From: an uncultured cyanobacterium | GTDB taxonomy: Bacteria; Cyanobacteriota; Cyanobacteriia; Pseudanabaenales; Pseudanabaenaceae | NCBI GenBank assembly: GCA_963703315.1 | Contig: OY969811.1 | Location: 1,312,001 to 1,376,000 of the forward strand | Length of the DNA: 64,000 nt | Direction of reading: 5' to 3' | Shown: positions 39,324-45,769 of the stretch, piece by piece | Numbering within the stretch: position 1 is the stretch's first letter | Layout: the number at the start of each line of letters is the position of its first letter | The notes under the pieces: generated by a model | Seen by the model: only the letters and a program-made list of their open reading frames with translations | What the model was told of the DNA's origin: nothing | Databases searched by the model: none | Made by a program: the position numbers and the translations under genes

Positions 39324-41525
39324 TCACGAACCTATAATACGGAGCATTCGCGATTCTATCTGTTCCCAAGTTTTGCGAGAAACGGCGATCGCCCGATTTT
39401 TACATTGCACCATTAATAAATTGGCATAGAGATAGTTCTCTAACGCTTCTACTTCCTGATGTGAAATTTGATTTAATTCCATCGGTAGATATAGTGTTTG
39501 TAGCCATGTACGGCTGATTTGATTGCGAAAAGTTTCTCGTACTTCAAAGGATTGATCATAGCTTGGTGACTGAGAAGCTAGGGACTCTAACCTCGTGCTT
39601 AAAGCCATGAAATTAATATTTTTTTTGTCAAAATCAATTTTGGCAAGAGATTGTTCCAATTCGCTACAAAGTTGGATTGCTAAGTTCAGTTCTGTCGCAC
39701 TATCAAAATCAAGAGCATGGGCAAGGCTCAGGGAAAGATCGGCGGCAAAAATCTTATCAAAATTTAAAGATAAATCAAAAGTCTTATACAAATCCTGTGC
39801 AAGTCCTAGAATCCTTGTCAAAATTAGAGCAGGAGCAAGTTCTGGCAAGAAACGAGGACGTGCTAGAAAGATCGCCGCAATGCGTTTAGCCACAGATTTT
39901 AATTCACCTTTAGAATTTAGATTTATTAGTTCTATCCAATCTAAAATATCGCGTAACTTATTAGTATTGATGTAGTTAGAAGTCTGTAACTCAATTGCTA
40001 ATAGAAGCTCTTCAGAATCACCAACTGCCATACCTGCTAGTAATAGAAAAATGTTCTGCCAACGGCGATCGCTCAAATACTGAGGAACGATTAATTTAAT
40101 CTTATGGTGATTATAAATATAACGAGCCGCAAAATATTCTTGAAAAGTAATGTGACTAAATAGAAAACTTGTAGAATTTCTAGAAGTGTTAATCTTACAA
40201 ATACCAATCTGCCGTAAAACTTTTAAGATAAAATCAACTTCGACCCCGTCGATAACACCCATGTAATTAGAGATTATTTGTTGTAAATACTCAGTTAAGT
40301 CTTGAAATGGTAAAAGTGACTGTCGTATTTCAAAACTTTTATAAGCAATTTCCGATAGTAAGATATCTAATATATCGGTACTAATAATATTGTTAGCTTG
40401 ATCATTTAGTAATTGACATTTTAACACTTGTTCTTCTAATACTAAATTGATTGCTTTTTGGTATAGACTACTCACATTACTCGGTAAACTATAGCGGCGA
40501 TCGCATAGTAAGCACAAAAATGATAGGCATAAAGGTGAATTAGCTAAATCTCTTGCCACACTATTTAATTGTAATATTTTCCAGCATCGTTGCGCTTCTT
40601 CCGATGCCACATCTTGTTCCGACCGAGCAGACTCGGCATTACTAGTATTTGCTTCTTGAGTAGTCCTTGACTCAGATGCGATCGTGAACCACTTATGGAT
40701 GTATTCCTGAACATGAAGATCATCCCAAGTCTGAAGTTCTAATTCCAAAAACTGCCCCAAACTACTTTGGTAAGAAGCTAAACGGCTAGAGACAATATAA
40801 CGATTTTTAGGATAGGCTTTGACAAAATCTCTTAAATGATTGGATAGATATTTTTGCGATAATGGTGATTCATTCAATCCATCAATCAAAATCAGCAGTT
40901 TCCCTTTCTCTAACATCCATATAGCTAGCTCTTGCGACTCAGGAAAACCACATTTTTCTAACTCTTCAGCGATCGCCTGCAACAAAGTATCGTCATTGTG
41001 ACAAAACTTCCATAAATGCAAAAAAACAGGCAAAACATCATGTTTATATCGAGATTCTGGATAATACAAAGCTTCCATTCCAATGTATTTCAGAAAAGTC
41101 GTCTTCCCTACAGCAGGTTCTCCTAAAATTGTCAGATAAGCTTCTTCGTTCGCAATGTTTAATCCTAAAAGATTATTCCCCTTACTATAACTACTTCTCT
41201 GAAGATCACGAGAAAAAGCTTCTTCTAGTTCATCAACAGACTCAAAACTACGAACAGAAGTATGTGCCTGTTTCAGTCTCTGAGAAATATAGATCGACAA
41301 TAGTGTGGTCAGACTTTGACTGCCAAATATCTGTATGAAAGCGTAAGACTTTACATAATTGCGAGCATATTGAGTTGCAGCCTTAGAAACAGCATGGCTA
41401 AAATAAACTTCATCTACCTCACATTCCCTCCCTTTTGCACTCTCCGTAAACCCAGACAATGCCGTCTTAAATCTTTTGACAACCTCACGAATAGTTTGTT
41501 CTTGCTTGATGTTCATTGTCAACAT
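39324..41525 (-). CDS. NACHT-family STAND NTPase
   Basis: Walker A GEPAVGKTT; Walker B LLILIDGLNE; SSR; SPL; FSHITFQEYFAA. Confidence 0.85.
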   Translation of the reverse strand: MLTMNIKQEQTIREVVKRFKTALSGFTESAKGRECEVDEVYFSHAVSKAATQYARNYVKSYAFIQIFGSQSLTTLLSIYISQRLKQAHTSVRSFESVDELEEAFSRDLQRSSYSKGNNLLGLNIANEEAYLTILGEPAVGKTTFLKYIGMEALYYPESRYKHDVLPVFLHLWKFCHNDDTLLQAIAEELEKCGFPESQELAIWMLEKGKLLILIDGLNESPLSQKYLSNHLRDFVKAYPKNRYIVSSRLASYQSSLGQFLELELQTWDDLHVQEYIHKWFTIASESRTTQEANTSNAESARSEQDVASEEAQRCWKILQLNSVARDLANSPLCLSFLCLLCDRRYSLPSNVSSLYQKAINLVLEEQVLKCQLLNDQANNIISTDILDILLSEIAYKSFEIRQSLLPFQDLTEYLQQIISNYMGVIDGVEVDFILKVLRQIGICKINTSRNSTSFLFSHITFQEYFAARYIYNHHKIKLIVPQYLSDRRWQNIFLLLAGMAVGDSEELLLAIELQTSNYINTNKLRDILDWIELINLNSKGELKSVAKRIAAIFLARPRFLPELAPALILTRILGLAQDLYKTFDLSLNFDKIFAADLSLSLAHALDFDSATELNLAIQLCSELEQSLAKIDFDKKNINFMALSTRLESLASQSPSYDQSFEVRETFRNQISRTWLQTLYLPMELNQISHQEVEALENYLYANLLMVQCKNRAIAVSRKTWEQIESRMLRIIGS

Positions 41526-41662
41526 AAATCCACCGAAATAGTCTCATTTCTATCTCCTATAAGTAGCTAGGCATAATTAAAAACCAGAGTAGAAACCTGT
41601 GACGCACGCGCAGCGTGCGCCACAGGTTTCTGGGTTTTATCTTTAAATTGCGCCCAGATACT

Positions 41663-42447: not shown

Positions 42448-43005
42448 ATGGCTCTCGATCCTCAGGTCTTCATGACCACCATGGAAACACGGATATCTTT
42501 CACCGCCGCAGATAAAGCTTTGCTAAAAGCCAATGCAGCGTGGGGGAATTCGATCGCTAGGCAAATGGCAGAAGTGTTTTACGCCTACCTTGCGCGTGAT
42601 CCAGAAATGAACGCTATTTTAACTGCCAAAGAAGGAAGAATGCACCGTTTAAATGAAACTTTCGTCGAATGGTTTGGCGAAATGTTTACGGGTATGGATG
42701 ACTGGGGGAGCGCTTATGCCGCACGTCGTTGGCGTATTGGCTTAGTCCATGTCCAGATTGGTATTGGACCACAGCACGTCGTTCCAGCAATGGCAACTGT
42801 CGTCAATGAAGTGGGGAAACAACTCAAGTCAGCAGGACTGGCTGAAGATCTAAGAGATGCTTTAGGACGCATTTGTATGATTGATCTTGCATTTATTGAG
42901 CAAGCCTATGTCGAGGTCTCTTCTCAAGCGGTTTTACGCGAGACGGGATGGACTGAGGCACTATTCAAACGCATGATTTCTACAGGTGCGGCAAGCATGA
43001 AATAG
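42448..43005 (+). CDS. Stand-alone sensor globin (protoglobin/HemAT-type)
   Basis: FY (B10-like Tyr) in AEVFYAYL; RIGLVHVQIGI with the proximal His; AGGAG RBS. Confidence 0.85.
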   Translation: MALDPQVFMTTMETRISFTAADKALLKANAAWGNSIARQMAEVFYAYLARDPEMNAILTAKEGRMHRLNETFVEWFGEMFTGMDDWGSAYAARRWRIGLVHVQIGIGPQHVVPAMATVVNEVGKQLKSAGLAEDLRDALGRICMIDLAFIEQAYVEVSSQAVLRETGWTEALFKRMISTGAASMK

Positions 43006-43041
43006 AAAAAGATTAATTCTTGAAAATTTTGGAGGCTATAT

Positions 43042-43500
43042 ATGCGTGCAGAACTTGGCGAATTTAGCAGTATTGTTTGTTTCAAAGCCATAGTTACTGG
43101 GGCTGAAGAGGCACTGGGTGAAAAGGCGGCAATGATCACGCTGATCGCCGCAGGTCGCGCTCGTGGTAAACAACTTGCAGAACAGCTTGGATTAAAAGGT
43201 GTGGGTACTGACCATGAACACCTAGTTCCCCTGCTCCAAAAGGCATTGGGTAAAGATGGAACGAGACTTTGCATTGTAGACAAAATTGAACAAGACGGTG
43301 CATTAGTGAGAGTTTACTGTCGAGAAACAATTTGTTCGGCTGGTGAACCTGAAGGTTCTCCTCGCAAACTGACCTTCACCCTAGGCGCAATCCAAGGAGT
43401 GATCGAACAAGTTACAGGGGAACGTTTACGGGGTAAGCAAACGGAGTCCGTTTTGCGTGGTGGTTCCCATGATGTCATTGAGTTTGAAGTTATTGGATAA
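43042..43500 (+). CDS. V4R (4-vinyl reductase-like) small-ligand-binding protein
   Basis: G...G+RG motif; ETICSAGE; FTLGAIQGVIE...G...ESVLRG pattern; GGAGG RBS. Confidence 0.7.
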   Translation: MRAELGEFSSIVCFKAIVTGAEEALGEKAAMITLIAAGRARGKQLAEQLGLKGVGTDHEHLVPLLQKALGKDGTRLCIVDKIEQDGALVRVYCRETICSAGEPEGSPRKLTFTLGAIQGVIEQVTGERLRGKQTESVLRGGSHDVIEFEVIG

Positions 43501-43571
43501 TTAATTTCCTCTTCCTCAAACTCCACCGTATTTACAGACAATTTACAATAATTCAAAACAAGGAAAAAGAA

Positions 43572-43943
43572 ATGAGCATTAACGTTGCGAAGTTGGAAAG
43601 TATTTTACAAAATTTGGTCACTAGTACTAGTGATGTACAGGGCGCAGCACTTGTGTCTCCCGATGGGCTACCTCTAGCCTCAACTTTGCCAAGTGGCATG
43701 GATGAAGAACGTGTATCAGCAATGTCGGCAGCAATGCTCTCATTAGGTGAACGCATTGGTAATGAGCTAGCTAGAGGTGGCATCGATCGCCTGTATGTAG
43801 AAGGTGATAAGGGCTATGGCATCCTGACTAGTTGCGGGGAAGAGGCTGTTTTACTAGTTTTGGCAAGCAAGGCAGCAAAACAAGGTTTATTGATGTTAGA
43901 AATTAAGCGTGTCACAAGCGAACTTAAAGCAGCACTTGCCTAA
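43572..43943 (+). CDS. Roadblock/LC7 protein (MglB-like)
   Basis: VQGAALVSPDGLPLAS; VSAMSAAMLSLGERI. Confidence 0.9.
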   Translation: MSINVAKLESILQNLVTSTSDVQGAALVSPDGLPLASTLPSGMDEERVSAMSAAMLSLGERIGNELARGGIDRLYVEGDKGYGILTSCGEEAVLLVLASKAAKQGLLMLEIKRVTSELKAALA

Positions 43944-44055
43944 GTTGTTTGAGTATTCATCCCCAGTCACGGTTTTAAGTTTGCTTACGGCAAAATCAAA
44001 ACCGTGACAACAGTTCAGATTTTAGGGTGACAAAGGGAAGGGACAAAAGAGATTT

Positions 44056-44598
44056 ATGGAAATCATGAGGTTGGTTGTGGCTGGTACTGTTGGTGCGGGG
44101 AAATCAACTTTCATTCGGACTGTGAGCGAAATTGATGTTGTCGATACCGATCGCCGTGCTACAGACGAAACAGCAGAAATAAAACACAAAACTACGGTAG
44201 CAATGGACTTTGGTAGATTAACCTTTGGTCCAGATATGGCTTTACACATTTATGGAACCCCCGGACAGCAGCGTTTTGACTTTATGTGGGATATTTTGAT
44301 CCGTAAAGCCCATGCATTTATTTTATTAGTAGCGGCACATCGTCCCCATGAGTTTCGTTATGCCCGTCGCATTCTCAGTTATATGAATCGGCGCGTCCAA
44401 ATTCCTTACATCATTGGGATTACGCACATGGATTGCGAAGGTGCTTGGTCAAGTGAGAATATTAAACTAGCACTAGGATTTGTCGAACAAAAGGATCAAC
44501 CACCCGTAGTGGTTTTAAATGCAGAAGAACGAGATACTGTCATTCAGGCGATTGTGGCTCTAGTGCAGTACTATATTGCAAATCAATCCGTTGCGTGA
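44056..44598 (+). CDS. Small Ras-like GTPase, MglA/conservon CvnD type
   Basis: G1 GTVGAGKST; TTVAMDFG; G3 GTPGQQRF; variant G4 THMD. Confidence 0.88.
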   Translation: MEIMRLVVAGTVGAGKSTFIRTVSEIDVVDTDRRATDETAEIKHKTTVAMDFGRLTFGPDMALHIYGTPGQQRFDFMWDILIRKAHAFILLVAAHRPHEFRYARRILSYMNRRVQIPYIIGITHMDCEGAWSSENIKLALGFVEQKDQPPVVVLNAEERDTVIQAIVALVQYYIANQSVA

Positions 44599-44695
44599 TT
44601 GTGAGCATCGATCATTATTGTTTTTAATTGATCTTGTTAGGAATTACAGCTATTCTCAGCTATAGATTTGGGCATTAACTCTCTGGTTTACAGTT

Positions 44696-45565
44696 ATGGC
44701 AATTACAGGCTCTTTATCCGAGTTCTCTCTCCCAGAGATATTCCAGTTTTTAGATCAGGGACAAAAAACTGGAATATTAACGATTAGAGATCCTCAAGAC
44801 TTGCGGACAGGCAAGCCATTTTTACGTCATATCTGGTTGCATAGTGGACGGGTAGTAGCTGCGGGCGATCGCCTCGACAATCGGGGTTTAACGAGATTGA
44901 TCGAACAAAGGGGCTGGATTACAGAAGCAAATCGTTCTCAAGTAGAGCAGTTAATTCAAGAAAATATCCCTTTGGGGCTAAATCTCAAAGCATTGGGAAT
45001 ATTACAACCCGATCAACTGAAATTATTATTTAGCGTACAGGTGCTAAGACAGGTCTGTTCTCTGTTTCAAGTTGAGACAGGACAATTTCGCTTTGATGCC
45101 AAAAGTGATTTACCCAAAGCGGAAATGACAGGGTTGAGTTTGCCTGCAACAGAAACAACGTTAATGGGGTTACGCAGTCTCAAGGATTGGACAGTTTTAC
45201 AAAGTAAGTTGCCTGACACCAGTTCGACATTATTTAGGCTTGGTAGTGATGAGCCACATTTACGTTTAGATGCCAGTGAGACGCAAGTACGTGGACTTGC
45301 TGATGGTTCCCTAAACCTTAAAAAAATAGCGGAGAAATTACAAGTTCCTTTACCTAAACTTCAGCAAATTGCATTTCGCTTGATTGTCGTTGGGCTAGTA
45401 GAAGAAGTACCTGATATTGATGTGGGTATGGCAATAAATAATGATAATAACTCCCAAGAAATTGAGGGGGATACTAGTGGGGCAGTGATGAGTTCTTCGG
45501 CGAGAACTGAGATTAGTAATTCATTTTTACAAAGCCTCGTAGGTTTTTTACAACACAAAGTGTAG
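44696..45565 (+). CDS. DUF4388/PATAN-domain protein with no receiver domain
   Basis: GSLSEFSLPEIFQFL...KTGIL; GQFRF; C-terminal wHTH-like ADGSLNLKKIA. Confidence 0.8.
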   Translation: MAITGSLSEFSLPEIFQFLDQGQKTGILTIRDPQDLRTGKPFLRHIWLHSGRVVAAGDRLDNRGLTRLIEQRGWITEANRSQVEQLIQENIPLGLNLKALGILQPDQLKLLFSVQVLRQVCSLFQVETGQFRFDAKSDLPKAEMTGLSLPATETTLMGLRSLKDWTVLQSKLPDTSSTLFRLGSDEPHLRLDASETQVRGLADGSLNLKKIAEKLQVPLPKLQQIAFRLIVVGLVEEVPDIDVGMAINNDNNSQEIEGDTSGAVMSSSARTEISNSFLQSLVGFLQHKV

Positions 45566-45769
45566 TTATAGAGTGGCGGCGCGAAGCGCTGCCACTCTAT
45601 TTTCAGCATAATACCAAAACTAAAAATGGCATAGCCATTTTTAGTTTTGAAAACCCTTACGGAGTTTGGGTTTTAATTCACGAAAGTGTGACAACACTTT
45701 CGTGAATTGGGATAACGGGAATGACGACAGGTATATTTTTGTAGTAGGTTTACATTTGTAAAACAGTTT

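Follow-up and report, generated by a model that had tools for sequence, protein, structure and literature searches.

A sensor-family globin and a V4R-fold protein beside a Group 5 MglA-type GTPase module in a Pseudanabaena-related cyanobacterium

Can a bacterium pass the state of a soluble haem protein to a Ras-like GTPase with neither a kinase nor a chemoreceptor in between? The question is raised by five genes at positions 42448 to 45565 of a 64,000-nucleotide stretch of contig OY969811.1 (assembly GCA_963703315.1, positions 1,312,001 to 1,376,000; hereafter the window) from an uncultured cyanobacterium of the Pseudanabaenaceae, whose closest named relatives are Pseudanabaena. An initial annotation proposed that a haem-bound gas and a V4R ligand together set the state of the GTPase in a fully soluble, phosphorylation-free pathway, by analogy with the MglA/MglB switch of Myxococcus. 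The five genes almost certainly form a real functional module, and the best overall reading, to which we give an even chance, is a Group 5 G-protein module with two plug-in soluble sensors.

The five genes and their catalogued core

The features of the cluster are as follows.

42448..43005, plus strand: stand-alone sensor-family globin of 185 residues (Protoglobin by Pfam), with Tyr45 at 42580-42582, His101 at 42748-42750 and the stop codon at 43003-43005
42916..43002, plus strand: C-terminal tail that extends the globin past its Pfam domain, of the form helix-Gly-helix with G167, L172 and R175, a candidate docking element
43042..43500, plus strand: stand-alone V4R/Bet3-fold protein of 152 residues (predicted model and fold matches), with conserved C13, C77, E95 and C98
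43572..43943, plus strand: Roadblock/LC7 (MglB-type) protein of 123 residues with a PDG motif (Pfam), the sole Roadblock in the genome
44056..44598, plus strand: Ras-like GTPase of 180 residues, assigned to MglA Group 5 by Pfam, motifs and tree, with GTVGAGKST, TTVAMD, GTPGQ and THMD
44696..45565, plus strand: PATAN/DUF4388 protein of 289 residues without a receiver (Pfam, predicted model, motif and helix analysis), divided into PATAN (residues 4-165, with an alpha-clip insert at about 60-115), winged helix (167-240), disordered linker (243-273) and C-terminal helix (275-287)

All five genes are intact open reading frames on the plus strand separated by 36, 71, 112 and 97 nt, as first described, and a purine-rich stretch precedes the start codon in most of them; the spacing suggests that they are co-transcribed. 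Pfam assigns Protoglobin (E 6.7e-19), Robl_LC7 (1.5e-19), ATP_bind_1 (3e-15) with Ras (1.4e-6), and DUF4388 (6.6e-28), and an NCBIfam scan of the cluster proteins gives nothing above the cut-off. Each gene is single-copy in this genome (tblastn, E 1e-3), and a profile search finds one Protoglobin match and one Roadblock match in the whole genome. In agreement with the initial annotation, no histidine kinase or chemoreceptor flanks the cluster among the open reading frames and Pfam matches at the locus. Additionally, no transmembrane helix is detected in the five proteins, in which no 19-residue stretch exceeds 1.55 on the Kyte-Doolittle scale.

Judged from its motifs, the Roadblock-GTPase-PATAN core is a catalogued MglA Group 5 module and not a Myxococcus-type switch. 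In the accessible part of the survey of Wuichet and Søgaard-Andersen (2015, PMC4316618; here and below cited from that part), threonine at the position of the arginine finger in G2 together with GTPGQ in G3 defines MglA Groups 2-5, whereas in Group 1 the arginine finger is intrinsic and accompanied by TVPGQ; Groups 2-5 lack the intrinsic finger, and no Roadblock arginine was found. The window GTPase carries TTVAMD in G2 and YGTPGQ in G3, patterns shared by 58/62 and 59/62 homologues respectively, and an arginine finger or TVPGQ occurs in 0/62. Its P-loop GTVGAGKST fits the Group 5 form GxxxxGK[ST] in a single-domain GTPase with an adjacent Robl_LC7 gene. The G4 motif is THMD, and T/S-H-x-D, with His for Lys, is present in 61/62 cyanobacterial homologues, whereas the published motif is [NT]KxD (PMC4316618); the lysine appears not to be diagnostic, because His is also present in proteins of 188 and 181 residues that match listed Group 5 rows in gene order and length. 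In a midpoint-rooted tree of 32 rows, none from Groups 1, 3 or 4, the window GTPase clusters with the proteins of locus L073 and D. proteolyticus (L228), and four CvnD proteins fall outside this group (100/100); the window GTPase is 62% identical to the 188-residue GTPase that follows a globin identical to Tlr1989 in L073.

The catalogued Group 5 MglB-MglA-PATAN rows include T. elongatus tlr1990, Synechococcus CYB_1482 and Deipr_2135 (Table S2), and share with the window the three core genes and the same G2 and G3 motifs. The taxa named for the group are Thermosynechococcus, Synechococcus JA, Cyanothece 7425, Aquificae, Chloroflexi and Deinococcus-Thermus; Nostoc and Trichodesmium are not listed for it in the part of the supplement table covered, and no member is characterised in that paper (PMC4316618). 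The difference lies in the globin and V4R neighbours present at the window, which are unnamed there, with 0 occurrences in the main text and none in the searched part of the supplement.

The Group 1 switch of Myxococcus and Thermus resembles the window in pairing a Ras-like GTPase with a Roadblock partner, but the Group 1 motifs are missing here, and the window Roadblock is far from Myxococcus MglB (E 0.02). The nearest solved chain to this Roadblock, in which the PDG motif is kept in 60/61 homologues, is instead 7F8M (E 1.7e-31), which is a point of likeness to Asgard systems. The proposal of a soluble sensor that feeds a Roadblock/GTPase switch stands as the simplest reading, but its Myxococcus analogy is weakened by the lack of an arginine finger. 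The conservons and actinobacterial G protein systems (CvnA-D, MfpB-E) are alike in combining a Roadblock, a GTPGQ-type GTPase and a small winged-helix-like protein, and in having optional soluble accessory sensors (CvnF, P450). They differ in their membrane histidine kinase, on which the accessory CvnF acts and which has no counterpart at the locus, in having DUF742 where the window has PATAN, and in GTPases that lie on a separate branch; the cluster is accordingly not of the conservon type (Group 2).

Globin and V4R proteins as accessories of the core

The globin matches Tlr1989 of Thermosynechococcus elongatus BP-1 (PDB 8H17) over its full length, tail included (phmmer, E 1.5e-81), and more distantly AfGcHK (E 3e-9) and GsGCS (E 5.5e-7). 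Tlr1989 is described in the title of a 2023 paper by Mathur and colleagues as a single sensor haemoglobin domain. The 8H17 structure presumably contains haem. The FY and proximal-His motifs noted in the initial annotation hold up well: F44-Y45 and H101 are invariant in 47/47 aligned globins, and H101 and Y45, which we take to be positions F8 and B10, coincide in the alignment with the His and Tyr conserved in AfGcHK and 8H17. The protein thus has the proximal His and distal Tyr of the globin-coupled sensor and protoglobin family, and these residues, together with Tlr1989, make it very likely that it binds haem. The fused output domain of a globin-coupled sensor is missing, since the 185-residue chain extends beyond the globin domain only by a 30-residue tail that the initial annotation had overlooked.

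Within the tail, G167, L172 and R175 are invariant in 47/47 globins. A similar tail ends three Thermus operon globins and one His-less globin-like protein from a T. brockianus operon, and a like tail is found in other stand-alone globins of about 180 residues in Pseudomonas, Kluyvera, Anaerolineales and Myxococcota records; many distant globins with the tail lack an equivalent of R175. Among the 29 of 150 distant globins that were scanned with Pfam, none is fused to a Roadblock, and the additional domain is a kinase, PAS or none. A large family of hybrid kinases of 950-1170 residues, one of them from Aeoliella, carries two tandem sensor globins and PAS (P0134, P0139, P0142 and others).

At locus L073 the globin is identical to the 8H17 chain and is followed by Roadblock, the 188-residue GTPase, PATAN and hemerythrin genes. 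Tlr1989 is a near-orthologue of the window globin, and the gene for an identical protein lies directly before such a core; the operon differs from the window in having no V4R gene. A stand-alone hemerythrin gene lies directly 3' of PATAN in three globin-bearing loci (L073:8517-8927, L068:8485-8910 and L086:8496-8963), and its product is a possible second O2 sensor.

The second gene has no Pfam match of its own, and the V4R family is matched weakly by 7/46 of its homologues; its Atlas score to V4R clusters is 0.96. The predicted model (predicted local distance difference test, pLDDT, 88) has four helices on a four-stranded sheet and matches PoxR (Z 15.7), DmpR (14.4), MJ1460 (13.9), TRAPP subunits (13.5-13.7) and Thor-TRAPPC3 (13.4). 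The superposition on 5fru gives Z 15.7 with a root-mean-square deviation of 3.0 A over 141 aligned residues, and that on Bet3 (2cfh) gives Z 13.5 and 3.1 A over 143. The predicted structure thus has the V4R/Bet3 fold, in keeping with the V4R-like label first given to the gene. The V4R domains of PoxR and MopR show a four-ligand zinc site pattern; the corresponding positions C77, E95 and C98 are conserved in 42, 43 and 40 of 43 homologues, and the fourth is Cys in 17/43 and Leu in the window copy.

The fold links the protein to the TRAPP core, in which Bet3 stands with longins, and to Asgard TRAPPC3 (Z 13.4-13.7), but the sensors PoxR and DmpR match it as well or better (Z 14.4-15.7). In Asgard MK-D1, the GTPase genes do not as a rule share operons with TRAPPC3 or Roadblock partners (Tran et al. 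2024, PMC10933270). The V4R, Roadblock and GTPase genes of the window are linked, by contrast, and so represent a pairing that is mostly missing from Asgard genomes.

The distribution of the module was followed through genomes and metagenome loci; related genomes are not independent, and kinship is uncorrected in all of these counts and in those of gene order. Among 301 cyanobacterial genomes, the globin is found in 29 and the GTPase in 36 (12%), with both in 27; the family of the window (71 genomes) has 30 globins and 41 GTPases, with both in 30. A profile search finds no Roadblock in the control genome of Synechococcus elongatus. The 39 globin regions contain Roadblock in 27, GTPase in 26, V4R in 10 and none of these in 12, the last being 10 intact extra copies in GTPase-bearing genomes and two fragments. 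In the metagenomes, 43 loci with 3.5 kb on each side, several of them near-copies and all drawn from the best 80 of 148 matches, contain Roadblock in 40, GTPase in 37 and V4R in 23.

Dropping eight broken loci leaves 53 distinct gene strings, many of them truncated where a contig stops; of the complete gene orders, 19 different ones include a globin. The window order recurs in 11/21 V4R loci, and five V4R loci with more than 5 kb upstream have no globin. Many operons hold only one of the two sensors, some have two PATAN genes, one cyanobacterial family places the globin after PATAN, and four loci (L081, L176, L204 and L206) retain a Roadblock and a globin gene but no GTPase gene. In Thermus, DUF4388-GTPase-Roadblock is accompanied by globins in 3/3 plasmid regions, and an EAL gene follows in two of them. 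In Deinococcus, V4R follows Roadblock in 3/4 regions, and 8/8 plasmid V4R matches lie about 1 kb from a GTPase match. EAL, HD-GYP or LuxR genes follow the module in 4/7 Deinococcota regions.

Across many gene orders, both in cyanobacteria and in Thermus and Deinococcus, the globin and the V4R protein behave like accessories that are optional and can be swapped. The co-conservation on which the initial annotation had staked its proposal is thus borne out across two phyla, and both sensors are indeed linked to the core; its picture of globin and V4R as joint inputs gives way to one of independent options.

Several variants of the module were also observed. A Thermus brockianus plasmid (L227:4539-6644) carries an operon with three globin-fold genes and, behind them, EAL and HD-GYP genes; one of the three globin-fold proteins has Tyr for the proximal His and keeps the tail. 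Pseudanabaena has a second, globin-less V4R-Roadblock-GTPase-PATAN operon (L009, L012, L013 and L015), with a GTPase about 70% identical, beside MerR-pentapeptide and isochorismatase-like genes, and some genomes carry both operon types. The whole module is pseudogenised in G297 (L085, L135), and a globin remnant stands alone in G151 (L089).

A candidate path from sensor to GTPase and its rivals

In the proposed mechanism, the Roadblock dimer would be the input hub to which globin and V4R each bind, the globin probably via its dedicated C-terminal tail. The ligation or oxidation state of the haem (O2 being the most likely ligand, with NO, CO and redox possible) or a V4R ligand would modulate the action of Roadblock on the GTPase and thereby shift its GTP/GDP state. 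PATAN would be the third core subunit and most likely the output carrier, through protein contacts at the cell periphery, and the best candidate target in cyanobacteria would be the type IV pilus motor. We consider it somewhat better than an even chance that the globin acts through Roadblock; that its ligand state changes the GTPase cycle is evenly balanced, and pilus or gliding control as the output is tentative.

V4R adjoins Roadblock more often than in shuffled orders (15/21 against 9.6 expected, p 0.008), and at least two Roadblocks are present in 9/18 distinct strings with at least two sensors, against 2/21 with at most one; some of this number pattern comes from block duplication. Because of these adjacency and number patterns, the Roadblock dimer was modelled with haem and globin. 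The complex score is 0.55, compared with 0.00 for the best of three controls, the runs agree in 100% of contacts, and the partner pLDDT is at least 88. This part of the complex prediction proposed in the initial annotation thus lends weak support to a model in which the globin docks on the Roadblock dimer. In the calibration, carried out without ligand, the mark was reached by 116/157 solved and 2/215 mismatched pairs, and scores of 0.60 or below comprise 18/157 solved pairs and both mismatched ones.

The following observations weigh against this mechanism. A score of 0.55 lies in a range that is more often wrong than right unless the interaction is likely beforehand. The globin adjoins Roadblock in 12/19 orders against 9.1 expected, which is not significant (p 0.13). 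Globin distances track those of the core weakly (Spearman 0.21-0.31, compared with 0.73-0.78 for core pairs, or 0.65-0.82 when both sets are taken), which fits accessory swapping and also a loose tie. Additionally, second-copy globins with the tail stand alone, and no globin- or V4R-Roadblock fusion is found among 18 long Roadblock matches. As for the output, motility is not a general one, because the GTPase is present in 36/301 cyanobacterial genomes and a non-motile bacterium has an MglA/MglB-like pair. Deinococcus is also non-motile.

The long Roadblock matches do include fusions to a receiver domain (5/18) or to GAF (1/18), so that the term phosphorylation-free fits this locus alone. These Roadblocks of the same clade are P0318-P0323, and the fused GAF has a Cys-His motif that presumably resembles that of cyanobacteriochromes.

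In the predicted model of the PATAN protein (pLDDT 84.5), DUF4388 contains a helical insert and is followed by a winged helix, a disordered linker and a last helix; the winged helix and the last helix are additional to the initial annotation. As that annotation stated, the protein has no receiver: unlike PatA-type proteins, it lacks Response_reg, which is also absent from the 25 Pfam families listed for 49 homologues. It resembles PatA and PixE in the DUF4388 domain with its alpha-clip insert and differs from them in ending in a linker and an amphipathic helix; the insert is missing in the Thermus protein compared. The genome encodes five other DUF4388 proteins, which match the window PATAN profile weakly (E 2e-9 to 0.2). 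In cyanobacteria, control of the pilus is a reasonable supposition because the PATAN fragment of PixE (1-258) alone binds PilB1 and PilC and reverses phototaxis, according to the accessible part of a preprint (bioRxiv 2021.06.11.447907), which also agrees with the initial annotation in its view of PATAN proteins as output adaptors and of PixE as acting on type IV pilus motility.

The MshEN motif for binding of cyclic di-GMP is RLGxx(L)(L)xxG. Binding of this nucleotide by the PATAN insert was considered and rejected, as the strict motif occurs in 0/61 homologues and the arginine is absent in 61/61; a relaxed pattern is present in 31/61, and Pro replaces Arg at position 92 in 50/56. The last 20 residues are net basic in 55/61 homologues and look amphipathic, and their amphipathicity exceeds that of their own shuffles (p < 0.05) in only 7/61, so that membrane anchoring by the last helix finds no support in this measure; the helix may serve to anchor the protein in the membrane or to bind a partner. 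The claim of a fully soluble pathway therefore agrees with the lack of transmembrane helices but is made uncertain by this conserved basic end.

One alternative, which we regard as unlikely and which is compatible in part with the Group 5 module with plug-in sensors, is that the PATAN-winged-helix protein is a regulator of the GTPase, an exchange factor or scaffold that is the counterpart of CvnC or MfpC, and that the true effector is encoded elsewhere and varies with lineage (cyclic di-GMP enzymes, transcription factors). This would fit the report of MfpC, a DUF742 protein, as the exchange factor of MfpB (accessible part of PMC11343762), the GTPGQ motif shared by Groups 2-5 and the winged-helix partner that Group 3 also has (PMC4316618), the close tracking of GTPase and Roadblock distances by PATAN (0.65-0.78), and the EAL, HD-GYP or LuxR genes 3' of the module in Deinococcota. 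The likeness to DUF742 itself is weak, however: homology of the winged helix to it is not borne out by a profile comparison built on four sequences (probability 1.9, E 0.025; the search to deepen the alignment gave two proteins), and DUF742 is absent from the 25 Pfam families listed for 49 PATAN proteins. The operons with two PATAN genes also argue against this role. The winged helix (45194-45415) finds its best structural matches in GATOR1/SEA subunits (8fw5_B, Z 10.1; 8adl_S, Z 9.8), which regulate Rag GTPases; the match is a lead and maybe merely reflects a common fold. The wide structural search covered mainly residues 182-243, and the full-length model gives no Foldseek match at E 0.001.

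It is improbable that the globin or V4R contacts the GTPase or PATAN directly instead of Roadblock, with R175 of the tail perhaps supplying the catalytic arginine that is missing from Groups 2-5 and their Roadblocks (PMC4316618). The invariance of R175 in the 47 aligned globins, the position of the globin 3' of PATAN in one cyanobacterial family and a partial distance correlation that places PATAN (0.16) slightly ahead of Roadblock (0.10) are in its favour, but the arginine is absent from many distant tail-bearing globins, and the GTPase motifs are the same in operons that have no globin, which indicates that the globin is not needed for catalysis.

A transcriptional output, with DNA binding by the winged helix and control by the module over genes of low-oxygen or redox acclimation, is hardly probable. 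It is suggested by the predicted winged-helix fold, by the control of gene expression by conservon systems (accessible part of PMC13343842) and by a HisKA_3 kinase and LuxR regulator upstream in one family. DNA binding is disfavoured because the domain has zero or negative net charge in 51/56 homologues; in addition, no conserved upstream motif, operator or NtcA/CRP-type box is found in 13 aligned upstream regions, and the kinase/LuxR pair is confined to one lineage (about 11 loci, co-oriented upstream, L054:739-2618 and relatives). Finally, a globin that is merely co-regulated with the GTPase module as an O2 buffer, NO detoxifier or haem store would accord with the lone extra copies (10/39 regions), the weak co-variation with the core and its loss in 11/41 GTPase-bearing genomes of the family, but is very improbable given a linkage that survives many rearrangements in two phyla, a tail conserved even in the His-less Thermus operon globin and the weak structural support for docking.

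The Group 5 module with plug-in sensors can be extended to a kinase-free, plug-and-play G-protein sensory system across phyla, in which a Roadblock dimer takes globin (docked by its tail), V4R and fused receiver or GAF domains as interchangeable inputs and passes them to GTPase and PATAN, and in which, in the cyanobacterium of the window, O2 or redox state would steer pilus-driven gliding; this extension is doubtful. If it were true, the V4R-Roadblock-GTPase trio would be a linked bacterial counterpart of Bet3-longin-Rab and Ragulator-Rag, and an oxygen-linked switch would be a new aerotaxis route for oxygen-producing, mat-gliding cells.

One precedent is HGbRL of Methylacidiphilum infernorum, a protein that combines a haem globin and a Roadblock domain in one chain (Teh et al. 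2015, PMC4476040, accessible part). HGbRL binds haem and O2, and a signal relay was proposed by its authors; an MglB-MglA-like pair is noted in the genome of this non-motile bacterium. It differs from the window in being a fusion, in its globin lineage (HMP/FHP/VsHb-related), in its restriction to one genus and in having no PATAN or V4R described in that part of the paper, and its globin is not matched by the window globin profile.

The core was already known in silico and one globin, Tlr1989, in vitro. A literature search, with subscription papers and some supplements out of reach, met no paper linking globin or V4R to the Group 5 module, none that assigns a signal, a mechanism or an output to Group 5 systems, and no description of a gas or other small molecule acting directly on a Ras-like GTPase of bacteria; Podar 2008 is silent on GTPases, roadblock and operons. 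The locus adds an operon that holds the two sensor types together, a tail common to several globins, the pairing pattern of sensors with Roadblock and a weak docking score. It suggests a testable route by which bacteria could convert gas or redox conditions into a signal carried by a G protein, offers a possible partner for the orphan globin Tlr1989 and may reveal the switching mode of GTPases that lack an arginine finger. The five proteins are small and free of membrane spans, and one has a solved near-orthologue, which makes the system amenable to study in vitro.

Intergenic elements and flanking genes

Two further features lie in and directly behind the cluster.

43966..44008, plus strand: stem-loop between the Roadblock and GTPase genes (folding energy compared with shuffles)
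45570..45597, plus strand: hairpin directly after the PATAN stop codon, a possible terminator from a genomic repeat family (terminator scan; 69 plus-strand matches in the genome)

The stem-loop has a folding energy of -28.5 kcal/mol (z -2.2 against mononucleotide shuffles) and is single-copy in the genome; a z of -2.7 or lower is reached in 8/9 Pseudanabaena-type relatives and in 0/3 more distant ones. It may serve to set stoichiometry. The terminator scan gives 4 matches, with 3.1 expected by chance, and the promoter scan is at chance level (11 found, 10.2 by chance).

A divergent NACHT gene lies upstream of the cluster across a 922-nt AT-rich gap, and an SDR gene lies downstream. The former (39324-41525, minus strand) encodes a NACHT NTPase with an NCH2 domain and has four paralogues in the genome; it is left out of the system because it adjoins the module in 7/21 related loci, all of them close relatives. 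A defence role was considered and rejected, as PADLOC matches neither the five cluster genes nor the NACHT gene. Palindromic intergenic repeats at 41591-41631, 45570-45597 and 45660-45712 belong to REP-like families with about 104, 69 and 24 plus-strand matches in the genome.

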